64,000 nucleotides of DNA from Prevotella sp. (GTDB taxonomy: Bacteria > Bacteroidota > Bacteroidia > Bacteroidales > Bacteroidaceae). Position 1 is the first letter of the stretch; every line of letters begins with the position of its first letter. The stretch lies in contig JAZSAV010000039.1 of the NCBI GenBank assembly GCA_045602085.1, positions 36,118 through 100,117 of the forward strand, in the 5' to 3' direction. Shown here in pieces: positions 9,399-25,183 of the stretch. The position numbers and the translations under genes were made by a program. Under the pieces are notes generated by a model. The model searched no databases. It was not told the origin of the DNA and saw only the letters and a program-made list of their open reading frames with translations.

Positions 9399-12300
9399 AT
9401 GTTAAGAGGATATATTTTGTTTGCCATGATGGTGATAGCACTGAAGGCAATGGCTGTCGATGATGCTACAAGCGGGTTGTGGAAGGGCTTTTCTAATCCA
9501 CAAGATTCGGCACGTACCAAAGTGTGGTGGTTTCACGGACAGACGGAAACAACACGCGAGGGAATAACCGCCGACCTTGAGGCGTTCAAGCGTCAGGGTG
9601 TGGGAGGCGTGGTGTTCTATAATCAGGTGCACGGCAAGCAGACGAGTGGGGCATTGAAGGTTTTTTCGCCTGAATGGTGGCAGATGTTCGTGTTTGCCGC
9701 GCAGGAGGCAAAGCGCCTGGGATTGACGTTCGAGACACACGCCTCTGACGGTTATGTGGCTGGCGGTCCTTGGATAACGCCTGATTTAGGCATGCAGAGA
9801 CTCACGAGTGAGGAATTACGAGTTACGAATTATGAATTAAACGGCCTCACCCCCAACCCCTCTTCAAAGGGCGAGGGGAGTGGTAACAATAGTATTTTAA
9901 GGAGTTCTGGAGTGCAGGAATGTAGGAGTGAAGACAATGGTTTGTCACGCAATTCTTCAATCCTTCAATCCTTTAATTCTTCCTCCTTCCTCCTCGCATA
10001 CCCCTTGAAAGGCAAGGAGTGGGAACGGAGCAAGACCATAAGCGAGGGGAAACTGATGACCATCGAGGCAGATGGCAACGAGCATTATCTGGATTTTGAC
10101 ATCAGCGACAGCTTCACCGCCCGACGAATAACATACAGGTGCGGCAAGCGAGGCAAGGCAACCACCAGTGCAACCAACGTGCCGGGACCTCCGGGCGAGA
10201 CATTCGTGGGAACTGGTTATCGTGAGATGCCCGATATAGGCGAGTTGCAGGCATCTGATGACGGAGTGAACTATTTCACCGTGTGCCGACTTAAGAATGT
10301 GTATAACGCACATGGCAGTTGGAATCAGAAAACCATAGCCTTTTCTGCGGTTAGAGCACGCCATTTCCGCTTGCGTCTGCACGACTGGAACCCGGAAGGC
10401 GAGAAGCGCAACCTGCGCATCGGCGACATCTCGCTACATTCGGCTGCCGGAGTAAACGAGTGGGAAGAGAAGGCGGCTCTTTATTCCGAGTATATAGAGC
10501 GACAGGAGATTGTTGACTATCCCGATGAGGAATGCCTACGCTCGGATGAGATGATAGACCTAAAGCAGTTTGTAGATGCCGACGGACATCTGCAATGGAA
10601 AGCACCCGAGGGCGATTTGCTGATAATGCGCTTTGCTCCAGTTCCCACGGGAGCGAAAACCAAGCATGGCACCGAGGGCATGGGCGGATTGGAATGCGAC
10701 AAGCTCTCGGCAAGGGCAGCTGAGGTGCAATGGCGCAACTACTTCAAGGTGATGAGCGACACGCTGGCACGCTACGGTTTGACGATTGACGGCTTGGCGA
10801 TGGACAGTCATGAGGCTGGTTCGCAAAACTGGACAGCAGATTTTGAAAAGCAGTTTGAGCGTCGCCGTGGCTACAGTCTTTTGCCCTATCTGCCAGTGAT
10901 GATGGGCTATGTGGTTGATTCGGCAGAGCGTTCCGAGCAGGTGCTTCAGGATGTACGCCGCACCATTGCCGACCTCATTGCCGATGAATACTATGCCACG
11001 CTCGACAGTCTTTGCCATTCGGTAGGCATCCCCTTTACCGCACAAGCCACGGGCAATGCCCTCTGCATCGTTTCCGACCCCATACAGGCAAAGGGCAGGG
11101 TGGCGAAGCCGCAAGGCGAGTTCTGGGCGATACATCCCGACGGCAATTATGACATTAAGGAATGCTCGTCGGCTGCCCACCTCTACGGCAAACCCATAGC
11201 ATCGGGCGAGGCGTTTACCGATGTGAAGTTCACCCAACCGCTGTCTTACATCAAGAGCTTGGCCGACTATGCCTATTGCTACGGTATCAACGAGTTTGTG
11301 GTGTGTGCCTCTGCCTATCAGGCGCAACAGGATAAAATGCCTTATAACACCGGAGGCGGACGCCACTATTGTCTGAACCGCAACAACACCTATTGGCCTT
11401 TCAGCCAACCCTTCTGGGATTACCAGGCGCGTTGCTCGTGGATGATGCGTCAGGGCAAGCCAGTGGTTGACCTCTGCGTATATCTCGGCGACAACGCCCC
11501 GGTGAAGATTCTCACTTACCGCTTGCCGGTAATCCCCTCAGGCTTCTACTACGATGCCTTTACAGCCGATGCCCTATACAATAGGATGAGGGCAGAAGAC
11601 GGCAGGATAGTGCTGCCCGACGGACTTTCATATAGAGCCATGATTATTCCTCGCCGCACGGTGCTCACGCCACAGGCAGCAGCCCGCATCGACTCGTTTG
11701 AGCGTGCCGGTGTGCCGATTATCAGGGAAACGACGCTGGAGTCGGTGGCTGAGGGGATAAGAAACCACAGACTTCTGCCGTCCATCCGTCTGCAACATGG
11801 CGACATGAATGATCAGCAACTGTGGTTTGCCCATCGTGCAACAGAGAACGCCGAACTGTATTTCATCAACAATCATGGCGAGGAGGTGATTGACGATGCT
11901 CTTGTCATAAGTTCGCCCTATCGGAATGCCGAGTGGTGGAATCCCGTTGACAACAAGCGCACGCGACTCACGCAGACAACCGATGGTGCATGGCGCATAC
12001 ACCTGCAACCAAAGGAGGCGGGTTTCGTTGTGCTCAGTAACCAGTCGGTGGCAGAACTTCCGCCATACGACAGAGGAAAGGAACGCTTGGTGAAGACGCT
12101 TGCAGACGACTGGAACGTCAGCTTCGACAAGAGTATGGGTGGGGTAGGTGATGTGCATTTCTCGCGACTTGCCGACTGGACAAACCATGCCGACACCGCT
12201 ATTAGGTATTATTCTGGCACTGCCATATATGAAAAGGAGTTCAAGATAAAGAAACCGAAGACTCGCACGCTGCTAAGAATACCCCAACTGCACGACATTG

Positions 12301-14075: not shown

Positions 14076-15674
14076 TTATATCTCTTCAAACAGATTGCCC
14101 CATGGGTAACTACCGGGTTTTAATATGATGCGCATATTGCCATGGGAGAGGCAGACGACGCCGGGCGAGTATTCATATTCTACATCGAAGGAACTGATGC
14201 CAAGGCGCTGAAGAACGGTGTAGGCAGTGGCGCCGCCTTCAATGATTATAAGAGTTGAGTGCTTCGCAAGTTGACAAGTTGACGAGTTGACGAGTTGACA
14301 AGTTGCTTGTTTCAGTTGACGAGTTGACAAGTTGCTTGTACTTGGAGGTAATGTCTGCACTCCTTCACTCCTGCACTCCTTCACTCCTTGTTCAGGTAAT
14401 GTCTGCACTCCTACACTCCTGCACTCCTGAACTCCTTGAACAGGTGATAAGATTTGATATGCCATTTCCCCAAAGAGCTTTCTAAGTCTTACGGCATACT
14501 CCTTGCCGCCAGTGGCTTCGTGACCTATGCGGACAATCATGGCATCGTGGTTTTGCCAATGGTCTTTGAGGGTTGCAATCCATGCGTTTGTTTCTAGAAT
14601 AGAAGCGGTTCCATGGAATACGTCTTCGGGCATGGTCACCTCAATGGCGTTCCTATCGGCAAAGAAGGGTTCGCCGATGAGCGAGCGGCTCTGGGTGCTG
14701 CCGCAGAGGATGAGTTTTTTTTCAGTTGACGAGTTGCTTGTATCAGTTGACAAGTTGACGAGTTGACGAGTTGACGAGTTGCTTGCATCAGTTGACAAGT
14801 TAACAAGTTGACGAGTTGACGAGTTGCTTGTACTTGAAGGTAATGTCTGCACTCCTAATAAATAATCCACCACCGCCTCAAACATATCGGCACCGCCGGC
14901 AAACAGGGTGTCGTTGTCGGACTTTGCGACATGCTCTCTGATTTCTTCGAGGGTGGTGGCGTCGGGGAGGAGAATCCCCCTCCCGTCCTCCCCCTTGGGG
15001 GAGGAAATAGATAAGAGATGAGAGCTTGGAGATGAGGGATTGCTTGTCCAGCTATTGTCTGAACTCCTACACTCCTGCACTCCTGCACTCCTTTTTAAAA
15101 GTTTCTTCGCCTCCGCCGTCCTTGCCGGAAACTCGGGGTCGTAGGCGAAAGATGTCTGGTCGAGTGGGGTGCCGTTTATATAATAGATGCCGTCTTTCAC
15201 TATTCTTCCCTTAGATGGGTTCTGCGGTATCAGCAATGCCTTCTGCTTGCCTGTTACCCTCATGAGTGCCTGTAACTCCGCCGCTACGTGACCTCGGAGG
15301 ACGGAGTCGGTTTTTTTGAAGATGATATCAGTTGACGAGTTGACGAGTTGACAAGTTGACAAGTTAACAAGTTGACGAGTTGACGAGTTGCTTGTACTTG
15401 AAGGTAATGTCTGCACTCCTACACTCCTGCACTCCTGCACTCCTGAATATAAACAAGTTGCCAGTTCTTCAATCGTTTTCACCGCCTCTTCCTCCGTGCC
15501 TGAGCGGGTGTCGGTGGCGAGAATAAGAGCCTCACCCCCTGCCCCTCTCCATGATGAGAGGGGAGTTGTTGGCACATTAGGTTGGTAAACCATCAACCAA
15601 ACCTTCATTCCCTTGCGCCATGCAATGCCCGCTATCTCGGCAGCTCCGGTTATGTCGTCGGCAATTATTAGCAT
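14076..15674 (-). CDS. DUF1537-family four-carbon acid sugar kinase (DtnK/DenK-like) with five repeat-derived in-frame inserts
   Basis: ADDITGA, FKKTDSVLRG, PQNPSKGR, EGGATA and KPGS motifs in order. Likely start ATG 15674. Confidence 0.85.
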   Translation of the reverse strand: MLIIADDITGAAEIAGIAWRKGMKVWLMVYQPNVPTTPLSSWRGAGGEALILATDTRSGTEEEAVKTIEELATCLYSGVQECRSVGVQTLPSSTSNSSTRQLVNLSTCQLVNSSTDIIFKKTDSVLRGHVAAELQALMRVTGKQKALLIPQNPSKGRIVKDGIYYINGTPLDQTSFAYDPEFPARTAEAKKLLKRSAGVQECRSSDNSWTSNPSSPSSHLLSISSPKGEDGRGILLPDATTLEEIREHVAKSDNDTLFAGGADMFEAVVDYLLGVQTLPSSTSNSSTRQLVNLSTDASNSSTRQLVNLSTDTSNSSTEKKLILCGSTQSRSLIGEPFFADRNAIEVTMPEDVFHGTASILETNAWIATLKDHWQNHDAMIVRIGHEATGGKEYAVRLRKLFGEMAYQILSPVQGVQECRSVGVQTLPEQGVKECRSEGVQTLPPSTSNLSTRQLKQATCQLVNSSTCQLAKHSTLIIIEGGATAYTVLQRLGISSFDVEYEYSPGVVCLSHGNMRIILKPGSYPWGNLFEEI

Positions 15675-15870
15675 ATTAATTTTTAGTTGACAAGTTGACG
15701 AGTTGACAAGTTGACGAGTTGACAAGTTGTTTGTATTAGTTGCCCCCAACCCCCCTTTTCAAGAGGGAGCACAGTTTGCTTTTGTTACAAAATCCCACCC
15801 AAAAATGGGAGGTTAGGATAAGGTTTCTCATCCCTAATCTCCTCCCCAAGGGGAGGATGGGAGGGGCTTT

Positions 15871-16893
15871 CTATTTATTCTTCGCCATCCGCGTAGCATA
15901 ATCAATGGAGAGGAGCATGGCAGAAGGGCTGGCGATGCCTTTGCCAGCCACGTCGAAGGCGGTGCCGTGGTCAACGGATACGCGGATGATAGGTAAGCCG
16001 AGGGTGATGTTCACGCCCTGTGCACTGTCCATCTTTCCCGTTTCCTTGTTCCAGTTGAACCCCACCACCTTAAACGGTATGTGCCCCTGGTCGTGATACA
16101 TGGCCACGCAACCGTCGTACTTGCCGCAACGTGCCTTGGCGAAGAGGGTGTCGGGCGGTACAGGACCGTCAACGTTGAAGCCTCTGCCTCTCAGTTCCTC
16201 GACGGCAGGCAGAATCTCCTTTTCCTCCTCCCAACCGAACAACCCGCCGTCGCTGGCGTGAGGGTTAAGTCCGGCGATACCAATGCGAGGATTGTCAATG
16301 CCAAACTGCTTGCAGGCATCGCTAATCAGTTCGGTAACCTCGATGATGCGTGGCTTCTTCACTCTGTCGCAAGCCTCGCGCAGAGAGACGTGTGTAGAGA
16401 CGTGGATTACGCGCAGAAACTCATCTGCCAGCAGCATGGCATATTTCTTTGTGCCTGTGAAGTGGGCATATATCTCGGTATGTCCGTCGAAGTGATGACC
16501 GGCAAGGTTCAGCGCCTCCTTGTTTAGGGGAGCCGTCACGGTGCCGTCCACCTCGCCCGCCATAGCCAGTTCGATGGCTTTTATTATCGAAACGAAAGCA
16601 GCGTTTCCGCATTGCGGAGCCACCTTGCCCGGCTCGAACTGCTCCATGTCGATGCAGTTGAGGTCATATACATCGATGGTTCCATATTCAAACTTTGCCT
16701 CGCTGACGTTGGCAATGGCGTTTATCTTCACGTCGGCACCCAGTTGCTTGGCTGCCCATTCCATTACTTTAGCGTCGCCCGTAACTATTGGGCGGCACTT
16801 CTCATAAGTCTCTTTTATTGTTAGGGCCTTAACCACTATCTCAGGTCCGATGCCTGCTGGGTCGCCCATGGTGATTGCTAGTATTGGTTGCAT
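15871..16893 (-). CDS. pdxA: PdxA-family dehydrogenase, PdxA2-like by context (4-phospho-tetronate dehydrogenase)
   Basis: MGDPAGIGPE, GLNPHA, MYHDQG, NITLGLPIIRVSVDHGTAFD. Likely start 16893. Confidence 0.9.
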   Translation of the reverse strand: MQPILAITMGDPAGIGPEIVVKALTIKETYEKCRPIVTGDAKVMEWAAKQLGADVKINAIANVSEAKFEYGTIDVYDLNCIDMEQFEPGKVAPQCGNAAFVSIIKAIELAMAGEVDGTVTAPLNKEALNLAGHHFDGHTEIYAHFTGTKKYAMLLADEFLRVIHVSTHVSLREACDRVKKPRIIEVTELISDACKQFGIDNPRIGIAGLNPHASDGGLFGWEEEKEILPAVEELRGRGFNVDGPVPPDTLFAKARCGKYDGCVAMYHDQGHIPFKVVGFNWNKETGKMDSAQGVNITLGLPIIRVSVDHGTAFDVAGKGIASPSAMLLSIDYATRMAKNK

Positions 16894-17042
16894 GTTATTT
16901 TTTAGTTGACAAGTTAACGAGTTAACGAGTTGACGAGTTGACAAGTTGTTTGATTGAGTTGACAAGTTAACGAGTTGACAAGTTGTTTGATTATACATGA
17001 ATATTTTTCAGTTGCACATAACTCGTCAACTCGTCTACTTGT

Positions 17043-21391: not shown

Positions 21392-21655
21392 AATTATAAT
21401 GTTTTAGTTTTGTTGTTATTTTCAGGTACAATTTTTCTTATTAAGACGTAAAAACCTTTATTTTGTAACCTTTTCGGCGAAAAATAATTGATTTTCACTT
21501 AAGATTTTTTAATTTTGCATGGTGTAATGAGTTGACAAGTAAACAAGTTGACGAGTAAACGAGTTAAATGCTGATAGGGCGAGCAAATCGTCAATATGTC
21601 AACTAACACAAGCAACTCGTCAACTTGTCAACTCGTCAACTAAAAAAATATAACC

Positions 21656-22444
21656 ATGCTCGGCACAATAGTAAACACATGTACGATAATAGTCGGTTCG
21701 GTGGTGGGCGCGCTGCTCAACCGCGGAATCAAGGAGAAATATAAGAACGTGCTCTACACCGGATTGGGACTTGCCTGTTTGGCTATTGGTCTTAACGCCA
21801 CAGTTACCAACCTGCCTAAGAGCCAGTATCCCGTACTCTTCATCGTGGCCATCTCCATTGGTGGCGTCATCGGTACAGCCCTCGATATTGACGGACGGTT
21901 TAAGAGAAGAGTTGACAAGTTGAGTCATTCAGTTGACGAGTTGACAAGAAGTTCCTTGAGTGAAACGAAAAAACAAGTTGACAAGTTGTGTGATTCAGTT
22001 GCAAATAACTCGTCAACTCGTCAACTCGTTGACTCGTCAACTAATAAAACCCTCGCCTCCGGCCTCAGCACCGCCGTACTCGTCTATTGCATAGGTCCCC
22101 TGTCTATGCTCGGTCCTGTGATAAGTGCGCTCAAGGGCGACAACACCTTTCTCTATACCAATGCCACGCTCGACCTCGTGTCGTCGGTTGTCTTTGCCTC
22201 GACCTACGGCATCGGCATGATACTTGCCGCCCCTGTGCTCTTCCTCTGGCAAGGACTGTTCTATCTTGTGGCATCACTCTCGAGTCAGGCAGTCAGCGAA
22301 GCCCTCATGGCAGAACTGCTCATCGTAGGCGGAATGATGATAACCGCCAGCGGCCTCTCGCTCCTCAACCTCAAGGATTGCAAGACGCTCAACTATCTGC
22401 CCGCTCTGCTCGTGCCAGTGGTTTGGTTCTTGGTGGTGGAGTGA
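21656..22444 (+). CDS. DUF554-family membrane protein with repeat-derived insert
   Basis: MLGTIVN..TIIVGS, YCIGPLS.LG, LD..SS.VFAS.YGIG, LP(A)L motifs. Confidence 0.85.
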   Translation: MLGTIVNTCTIIVGSVVGALLNRGIKEKYKNVLYTGLGLACLAIGLNATVTNLPKSQYPVLFIVAISIGGVIGTALDIDGRFKRRVDKLSHSVDELTRSSLSETKKQVDKLCDSVANNSSTRQLVDSSTNKTLASGLSTAVLVYCIGPLSMLGPVISALKGDNTFLYTNATLDLVSSVVFASTYGIGMILAAPVLFLWQGLFYLVASLSSQAVSEALMAELLIVGGMMITASGLSLLNLKDCKTLNYLPALLVPVVWFLVVE

Positions 22445-24960: not shown

Positions 24961-25183
24961 GGGTTTTCTAGGAACTTCTAGGATTTCCTAGGATTTTCTA
25001 GGATTTTCTAGGACTTTCTAGGACTTTCTAGGACTTTCTAGGACTTTCTAGGATTTTCTAGGATTTTCTAGGACTTTCTAGGACTTTCTAGGACTTTCTA
25101 GGATTTTCTAGGACTTTCTAGGACTCTCTAGGACTCTCTAGGACTCTCTAGGACTTTCTAGGACTCTCTAGGATTTTCTAGGG
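24961..25183. repeat. 10-bp tandem repeat, 22 copies of (T/C)TCTAGGA(C/T)T
   Basis: Exact 10-bp period; shorter copies at ~26190-26255 and ~27360-27420. Confidence 0.95.

Follow-up and report, generated by a model that had tools for sequence, protein, structure and literature searches.

We analysed a 64,000-nt stretch of DNA from Prevotella sp. (Bacteroidota; assembly GCA_045602085.1, contig JAZSAV010000039.1, positions 36,118-100,117 of the forward strand), hereafter called the window, in which a four-carbon acid-sugar kinase gene of the DUF1537 family carries five in-frame blocks of repeat DNA. The source genome is a metagenome-assembled draft of gut or rumen type, with 49 contigs, 3.39 Mb and 91.6% completeness. 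The kinase gene, intact on the evidence of its open reading frame (ORF), Pfam, alignment and structure match, lies on the minus strand at 14076..15674: it begins with the ATG at 15674 (N-terminus MLIIADDITGA...), ends with the stop at 14076 and stays open for 532 codons. Pfam finds both DUF1537 domains in order, SBD_N at 3.5e-30 and NBD_C at 1.7e-6, the second barely over the cut-off because the fifth of the blocks described below splits that domain. In a 61-sequence alignment of the DUF1537 family, the kinase retains 52 of the 52 invariant columns, and it carries the family motifs ADDxTGA, KKxDS.LRG, QNPS, DPEFP, GSTQ, EGGxT and KPGSY.WG. The gene product is predicted to be a functional DUF1537 acid-sugar kinase.

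The kinase is ~150 residues longer than its insert-free orthologues, and the alignment confines the excess to five blocks, which were mapped against four insert-free orthologues from four other genomes (375-407 aa) and 55 further family members (~350-415 aa). All five are read on the minus strand. Insert 1 (15531..15566, aa 37-48) encodes the peptide TPLSSWRGAGGE and is formed by a G+C-rich hairpin module (CCCCTCTC..GAGAGGGG..GGGGGTGAGG) that folds at -23.6 kcal/mol (z -1.7 against shuffles) and whose family has 22 BLAST matches elsewhere in the genome. Insert 2 (15330..15455, aa 74-115) comprises (GGAGTGYA)x4, the linker GACATTACCTTCAAGTACAAG, a (CAACTYGT) array and TGAT, while insert 3 (14976..15092, aa 195-233) comprises (GGAGTGYA)x4, the linker GACAATAGCTGGACAAGCAA, CCCTCATC-type units and a G+C-rich hairpin translated as SPKGEDGRG (fold z -2.46 against shuffles). 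Insert 4 (14715..14855, aa 274-320) sits in the inter-domain linker and is laid out as the end of a GGAGTGCA module, a private linker, three (CAACTYGT) arrays spaced by TGATRCAAG, and an A-run tail read as EKK. Lastly, insert 5 (14253..14444, aa 411-474) consists of two GGAGTKNA modules with linkers followed by (CAACTYGT) arrays, and corresponds to a clean 59-column gap in four out of four insert-free orthologues.

Two recurrent modules account for most of this layout. Module A is (CAACTYGT)x4 plus CAAC, 36 nt or 4.5 units long, and yields STRQLVNL whichever of its three phases is read; module B, (GGAGTKNA)x4, is typically 32 nt long, yields GVQECRS and is followed by a ~20-nt linker starting GAC(A/G)(A/T)T. 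Inserts 2, 4 and 5 are B-linker-A composites that fold as RNA no better than shuffled sequences (z -0.12, +0.78 and +0.90, respectively), and inserts 1 and 3 additionally hold the G+C-rich hairpin module. Terminal inverted repeats were looked for in the kinase composites and none were found, the two ends of the B-linker-A arrangement being unlike each other. Used as BLAST queries, the five blocks returned 1124 matches in the genome. At the protein level, the 43-aa peptide of insert 2 gave only 12 matches among 1.84 billion representative proteins, with a query that is short, of low complexity and unfit for counting; most of them were to small ORFs or to relatives of the kinase, and two proteins, of 1927 and 923 aa, also appeared. 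Candidate junction peptides of the kinase are QLVNLSTCQLVNSSTDIIFK and those ending ...GVQTLPSSTSNSSTR.

A 34-bp module, in which a CAACTYGT array, the private linker and a GGAGTGCA array are joined, has exactly three exact matches in the window (14331..14364, 14823..14856 and 15387..15420, all given on the plus strand), with 0 expected from shuffles. Its copies are spaced by 492 and 564 nt, both multiples of 3, so that all three share one frame. The 21-nt private linker of inserts 2, 4 and 5 (GACATTACCTYCAAGTACAAG) has no other copy in the whole genome; since it is unique to this gene, the three inserts were probably copied from each other within it, and they appear to be mutual copies rather than three separate arrivals from intergenic DNA. 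The original prediction made for this gene had described five blocks between the conserved motifs, the translations STRQLVNLST, GVQECRS and SPKGEDGRG, a module present three times in one frame at 14331, 14823 and 15387, and a frame open for 532 codons. Alignment to the insert-free orthologues placed the blocks within a few bases of its coordinates, translation returned the same peptides and the same open frame, and the exact search recovered the three copies. It had also proposed aligning the orthologues as a check, and those without the repeats do lack the inserted segments.

We then considered where the blocks fall in the protein. An AlphaFold2 model of the kinase, built from the 61-sequence alignment (predicted template modelling score, pTM, 0.77), has a predicted local distance difference test score (pLDDT) of at least 90 at 260 residues, with the core above 90. 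It matches the DUF1537 crystal structures 1yzy, 5dmh and 3dqq, with E values of 1e-20 to 1e-22 and target-normalised TM scores of 0.60-0.71. Residues 85-112, 206-222, 280-284, 295-314 and 416-469, which belong to inserts 2-5, have a pLDDT below 50 and no secondary structure; insert 1 scores 72-75. Every insert is placed between two confidently predicted structural elements, and the model suggests that the four large ones are disordered loops between well-predicted elements.

The same five sites were followed in related alleles. A match to an exact 49-mer led to the sister genome JAZLCN01 (Prevotella sp.), in which the DNA of the operon is ~88-94% identical to that of the window; the kinase there has all five sites filled, and differs from the window by whole-codon indels of 7, 8, 14 and 16 codons. 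The protein collection holds 47 kinase relatives at 60-86% identity, from ENA, NCBI and JGI assemblies and on contigs of up to 574 kb: ~42 are full length (466-603 aa), and the remaining five are short and lie on 2-3 kb contigs ending at repeats. In the full-length alleles, all five sites are retained in frame and none is empty. Outside the inserts the alleles are nearly identical, and inside them there is large variation in both length and kind, lengths at one site differing by tens of residues. In other alleles, site 1 holds a KTSKPQNLKTS octamer array; site 2 in some of them holds a short CCCCTCC..GGAGGGG hairpin module; and three unrelated fillings are found at site 3. Sites 4 and 5 show 16-aa (48-nt) duplications, with site 4 the most variable in length. 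One further allele, P0044 (a JGI contig of 2463 nt), has insert 4 running directly into insert 5 with the intervening core segment missing, owing either to a recombination deletion between repeats or to an assembly collapse.

Six allele DNAs, namely the window, the sister and four further fetched alleles, were compared at the nucleotide level. Their coding sequences all have lengths divisible by 3 and contain no internal stop. The dN/dS of the kinase core is 0.10-0.22 at a dS of 0.17-0.50, and that of the inserts 0.55-0.92, the latter a rough figure derived from low-complexity alignments.

Arrays of this type are distributed throughout the genome. Tandem Repeats Finder (TRF) identified 987 tandem-repeat clusters in the 3.39 Mb, mostly of period 7 (143) and period 8 (253). 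Among 108 genomic A arrays, the commonest length is exactly 36 nt (42 arrays), typically with ..CAAR before and TRAA after the array. The A array is also present in 13 out of 120 other genomes of the genus, in fewer copies than in this genome. The gene map used for location was built from long ORFs and not from annotation, and an array was considered deep when at least 150 nt of frame lay on both sides. On this map, 103 of the 588 arrays with period 6-11 lie deep inside 63 of ~2580 ORF-defined genes, and the share of arrays inside genes depends on the period (8-mers 28%, 7-mers 8%, 10-mers 2%). The kinase is the second-ranked gene of the genome in arrays per kb. The 18 array-bearing ORFs that were checked with Pfam have full domain architectures, and include AlaRS, MetH, Kdo transferase, Dus, GH2, GH43, GH77, alpha-2-macroglobulin and a TonB-dependent receptor.

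Antisense A arrays have TGA in all three phases, and therefore only sense copies can sit in ORFs; the sense bias of module A follows from the definition of an ORF and was rejected as evidence of translation. Module B is open on both strands, yet 29 of its 30 deep-ORF copies are in sense (one is antisense), mostly because 20 B copies are coupled to a downstream A block. B-linker-A composites are almost confined to coding sequence, with 20 deep in ORFs and 1 elsewhere. In the 48 other B modules, which lie outside genes, the linker is another, hairpin-like one (GACGTATGC..GCAAATGTC), a T-run stands in front, and the arrays behind belong to other families.

The alanyl-tRNA synthetase (AlaRS) gene offers a second case. 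Its product has a 24-27-aa insert in place of a 3-residue turn, absent from 19 of 22 orthologues. The insert is a hairpin element (fold z -3.0) in which a 17-nt loop joins an inverted A arm to a 36-nt A block. The units of the inverted arm are altered, with TGA changed to TCA, TAA, TAG or TTA, so that the frame in use contains no stop. Comparison of the insert site with the empty orthologues showed no target duplication. AlaRS is essential, which argues that such inserts are read through rather than disabling. Three other lineages (L048, L056 and L066) have unrelated low-complexity inserts at the same turn, and the same AlaRS loops seem to be reused as permissive sites across species. Several AlaRS orthologues also carry inserts at a second site.

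The arrays are found, moreover, at the ends of small gene-bearing elements. PF05635 ("23S rRNA intervening sequence protein") is an uncharacterised relative of Avd, the accessory protein of diversity-generating retroelements, and is known from ORFs of rRNA intervening sequences (PMC10053308; bioRxiv 10.1101/2024.02.27.582315). The genome contains four PF05635-like ORFs, two detected by Pfam (1e-40 and 3e-36, with a weaker bAvd match) and two by jackhmmer only; three longer, more distant four-helix-bundle-like ORFs were likewise found by jackhmmer only. TRF at score 40 missed several short degenerate arrays beside PF05635 genes; the flanks were inspected visually, and score 30 was used for a second run of the survey. 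On visual inspection, inverted tandem arrays bracket the four short PF05635-like genes and one longer ORF, and the two other longer ORFs have arrays at one end only. The bracketing families are the A family, CAACATAA, GAAGATAGAA, AATTATG and the CCTAGG 10-mers. A TRF array lies beside 7 of these 7 ORFs; among all genes, 21% have one near one end and a further 2% near both. The only relatives of the arrays that bear a gene carry a PF05635 gene, which is not a known transposase.

One of these elements shares a module with the kinase inserts. It lies between frdA and frdB (G000:C13:216514-217040), with inverted AGTTGACR arrays on the left, starting at the frdA stop codon, and on the right a 36-nt A block followed by TAAA, where the array ends in an A-rich leader for frdB. 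Its right arm is the same A module as in the kinase, and likewise in the homologous elements L129-L134. Relatives of the PF05635 protein of this element were then surveyed across phyla (Bacteroidota, Desulfobacterota, Nitrospirota, Planctomycetota, Patescibacteria and others): 80 loci were fetched, 73 of them with full flanks. An array of period 6-11 occurs within 220 nt of the PF05635 gene at 63 of the 73 loci, and on both sides at 45; in control windows just outside the loci, an array was found in 2/73 and 2/73. The flanking arrays have period 7 (42) or 8 (79) and a median length of 32 nt. Where both sides have one, the two arrays are inverted copies with at most 2 mismatches in 41 of 45 cases, and direct in the other 4.

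The closest homologues of the frdA-frdB PF05635 gene occupy the same junction, which was examined in 71 Prevotellaceae (loci L129-L134, L147, L165 and L209-L288). The junction is empty in 31, with a spacer of 2-8 nt; ~16 hold 436-712 nt, 14 of them with a PF05635-like ORF; and several hold 33-61 nt, corresponding to a solo A arm or to a gene-less A hairpin. Such a series of empty, full and remnant junctions is what would be expected as the trace of a small insertable element and its decay products. Module A thus appears firmly tied to PF05635 elements, and we infer that the modules descend from the ends of such elements. The papers searched on PF05635 revealed no link to tandem arrays, and the terminal arrays of PF05635-gene elements are a grouping that we propose here, not a published family.

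Taken together, these observations make it quite probable, in our judgement, that five loop sites of a functional kinase hold the dispersed modular repeats of its lineage, translated as disordered sequence and drifting almost neutrally, and that the modules are apparently detached ends of PF05635 elements. The starting set would comprise modules A and B, the ~20-nt linkers and the small G+C-rich hairpins, and the full form of the element would be a PF05635 gene (Avd-like, four-helix bundle) flanked by inverted arrays, each with about four units of 7 or 8 bp. As 8 is not divisible by 3, the units of an array pass through each of the three reading frames, and in one orientation neither A nor B has a stop in any of them. 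With such stop-free frames, a B-linker-A composite of length 3n would add only a low-complexity peptide. Selection would purge the copies that break the frame or disturb the fold, and the survivors would sit in loops between secondary-structure elements. At the fixed sites, the sequence within the inserts evolves almost freely and their contents turn over fast, with the enzyme core under purifying selection; the changes would probably arise by slippage (steps of 24 or 48 nt), by modules being duplicated, or by one module taking the place of another. The inserts would be translated, as the conserved frame suggests, and carried as neutral passengers.

The insert peptides might instead have been co-opted as tethers, interaction sites or regulatory segments, and be retained for that reason. 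Every allele of the clade has fillings at all five sites, across a core dS of up to 0.5, insert 4 occupies the inter-domain linker, and the dN/dS of the inserts is somewhat below 1, all of which would suit a function. However, unrelated sequences fill the same site in different alleles and lengths there vary by tens of residues, the same peptides appear in unrelated enzymes, and insert-free orthologues are the rule in the family. We regard co-option as unlikely on balance.

It could also be argued that the arrays are phase-variation switches, the gain or loss of one 8-bp unit toggling the kinase on and off. A unit of 8 bp does shift the frame, the arrays are unstable in length between alleles, and phase variation classically relies on simple-sequence repeats within ORFs (Mrazek 2007 and subsequent studies, as outlined in PMC4679880). 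Against such a role, the differences among the full-length alleles are of whole codons, in many cases of 24 or 48 nt (3 or 6 units); the same arrays occur in essential housekeeping genes such as AlaRS, where an off state would presumably be lethal; and it is hard to see what use a single cytoplasmic catabolic enzyme would have for five switches. Phase variation is, in our view, distinctly unlikely.

Removal of the inserts before the mature protein is formed, by RNA processing or by protein splicing or cleavage, is very improbable. Such a route would leave no selection on frame, stops or orientation, yet all the alleles are in frame and the stop-prone units of AlaRS are altered. The idea draws on 23S rRNA intervening sequences, which are cut out of RNA and are relatives of the bracketing elements, and on the hairpins contained in the AlaRS insert and in inserts 1 and 3. 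Inserts 2, 4 and 5, however, have no stable structure, and cutting of the mRNA would not rejoin its ends. Nor are intein or intron features present, and Rfam at gathering thresholds has no match anywhere in the window. Finally, that the kinase is a decaying pseudogene, or its inserts artefacts of assembly, is barely credible: the 49-contig, 91.6% complete draft, the short contigs ending at inserts and the P0044 allele lacking the stretch between inserts 4 and 5 would fit it, but the core dN/dS of 0.10-0.22, the invariant residues kept by a frame open through five inserts for 532 codons, and the same five sites in dozens of independent assemblies from three archives largely exclude both decay and misassembly.

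Returning to the reading of the inserts as translated, nearly neutral repeat modules, several points weigh against it, beside the roughness of the insert dN/dS noted above. Transcription and translation of the inserts are presumed from the conservation of the frame. The search that gathered the alleles favours intact ones, and proteins shorter than 0.55 of the query length were excluded as candidates. The clade yielded no empty site for any of the five kinase inserts, and identity to the nearest insert-free orthologues is only ~50%; the insertion events, their order and any target duplication are therefore not reconstructable. Estimated roughly, insertion at random with later sorting by orientation, frame and fold would leave a coding share far below the 20:1 seen for the B-linker-A composites; the excess of coding composites may point to a process other than passive tolerance, such as remodelling in place, gene conversion or copying between ORFs. 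Furthermore, no PF05635 gene in this genome is bracketed by module B, whose origin is less well tied than that of A; B-type hairpins do exist, and the intergenic-B linker resembles the inner end of the PF05635 element on contig C25 (~21/25 nt by eye).

These results modify the original prediction in several respects. It had proposed that intergenic repeats read as protein occupy surface loops under selection for the frame. The inserts are indeed repeat-family DNA read in frame, the four large ones lie in loops predicted to be disordered, and selection on the frame is borne out by the ~42 intact alleles, the whole-codon indels and the core dN/dS. That the blocks come from intergenic repeats agrees with the genome-wide families revealed by the 1124 BLAST matches, and not with the composite, which is found 20:1 inside ORFs. 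Five independent insertions cannot be upheld with all sites filled throughout the clade, no empty site and a private linker shared by three inserts. The kinase is also not special in carrying such arrays, as 63 genes of the genome do, and the signature of a mobile repeat was not recovered, neither terminal inverted repeats nor target duplications of a classical mobile element having been found. The match of the arrays to the ends of PF05635-gene elements is an addition to that prediction. What the kinase shows in dense form is a process of the whole lineage, rather than a singular event or a classical mobile element.

A broader proposal may be put forward tentatively, as a serious possibility that we do not yet favour. 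The blocks of about four 7-8-bp units seen in Prevotella, Geobacter, cyanobacteria and candidate phyla, a repeat class noticed long ago and left without an explanation, might be the terminal inverted arrays of a widespread, undescribed class of small element whose one gene codes for the Avd-like, four-helix-bundle PF05635 protein. The four to five units would be a putative binding site for an oligomer of this protein and the paired arms a processed RNA or DNA stem; hairpins lacking the gene, solo arms and half-elements formed by recombination would scatter through the genome, and stop-free chimeras would settle in genes and provide them with new, rapidly changing loop peptides, this kinase being an example.

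The neighbourhood of the kinase gene contains further arrays. Upstream of it, on the minus strand, lies a PdxA-family dehydrogenase gene (15871..16893; Pfam PdxA, 3.1e-106), the customary partner of DUF1537 kinases, and the pair is retained in all the relatives fetched. Both genes have arrays in their leaders. In that of the kinase, a (CAACTYGT) array (15685..15729, minus strand; TRF period 8, 5.6 copies) is preceded by a G+C-rich hairpin module and ends CAAC-TAAAAATTAAT-ATG directly before the start codon, and in that of the PdxA gene TRF places (CAACTYGT) arrays at 16904-16985. In many genes the A array ends 10-20 nt before the start codon, in the form CAAC-T(A/G)AAA..ATG; because of this frequent position, the elements supply, or prefer, the A-rich leaders that serve translation start in Bacteroidota.

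Other arrays were observed elsewhere in the window. At 9804-9994 (G000:C39:45921-46099), ACGAATT-type 7-mers, CAATCCTT 8-mers and CTTCCTC are chained in frame within a 1061-aa ORF on the plus strand, a putative GH106 enzyme on a sequence-only reading. At 22007-22042 (and 21973-21988), a (CAACTCGT) array lies in frame in a 266-aa ORF (~21644-22441), presumably a DUF554 protein by the same kind of reading, and an inverted short arm upstream of the array suggests a hairpin-type element. At 24965-25182, the 10-mer TTTCTAGGAC is repeated 21.8 times in a long array; the CCTAGG-based 10-mer family to which it belongs also brackets a ~230-aa four-helix-bundle-like gene at G000:C20:533877-534569.

If our reading is correct, recent repeat DNA translated as protein makes up between a quarter and a third of a working enzyme, variable between strains, around a catalytic core that barely changes. 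Such genes would be a natural, replicated system for asking what amount of random loop sequence is compatible with a fold and by what path non-coding repeats turn into coding sequence. From a practical point of view, inserts of this type split Pfam domains, break assemblies and inflate the apparent protein diversity of gut and rumen metagenomes. The tie between arrays and PF05635 would give a concrete origin to the unexplained hepta- and octanucleotide modules of several phyla; for PF05635, a very common family, it would be a first lead to function. What is new here is the population view (fixed sites with changing contents), the placement of the inserts in predicted disordered loops, the finding that the B-linker-A chimera occurs almost only in coding sequence, and the controlled test of the association between arrays and PF05635.

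A literature search for in-frame or intergenic tandem repeats in Prevotella found nothing specific. The original prediction had pointed to Rickettsia palindromic elements (RPEs), many of which are found in frame in metabolic genes of R. conorii, as conserved palindromic units of ~100-150 bp with each family encoding one conserved peptide (PMC10969869). The analogy holds for the outcome and fails for the anatomy. In both cases, dispersed short repeats lie between genes and in frame in unrelated metabolic or housekeeping genes, many of them, as peptides compatible with the fold; in this genome, in-frame repeats with the host protein kept are found in 63 unrelated genes, 18 of them Pfam-checked. 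Unlike RPEs, the repeats described here are 32-36-nt modules of tandem octamers arranged in mosaics, inserts 2, 4 and 5 are not palindromic, the contents vary widely between strains, and five inserts lie in one gene. The two have no sequence relation and belong to different phyla.

Cyanobacterial short tandemly repeated repetitive (STRR) heptamers are another case of dispersed heptanucleotide repeats. Among published repeats, PMC4679880 covers both the TAACTGA repeats found upstream of start codons and the long simple-sequence repeats reported by Mrazek 2007. Our arrays resemble such published hepta- and octanucleotide modules in their blocks of fixed size, each with about four 7-8-bp units, in their many copies, and in lying in and between genes, often upstream of starts. 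In those reports the repeats are listed in passing and read as regulatory, with their cause unexplained, and population data, structural mapping, B-linker-A mosaics and the PF05635 link are features of the present analysis.

Nearer in taxonomy is a MITE (miniature inverted-repeat transposable element) of Porphyromonas gingivalis that holds a minisatellite (PMC4596501). As far as the available part of that source goes, it is likewise a small non-autonomous repeat with internal tandem repeats, from the same order, Bacteroidales. It differs in having MITE ends, whereas here the tandem arrays themselves form the ends, and neither terminal inverted repeats nor target duplications were found.

There is a likeness in gene content with the rRNA intervening sequences that carry a PF05635 ORF (PMC10053308; bioRxiv 10.1101/2024.02.27.582315). 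Unlike the elements reported here, those have been described in rRNA genes; these papers mention no terminal arrays of tandem 7-8-bp units, and no coding-sequence inserts have been tied to such elements. Like them, the elements of this genome are small and lie within or between essential genes, and both systems have ORF-containing and ORF-less forms at equivalent sites.

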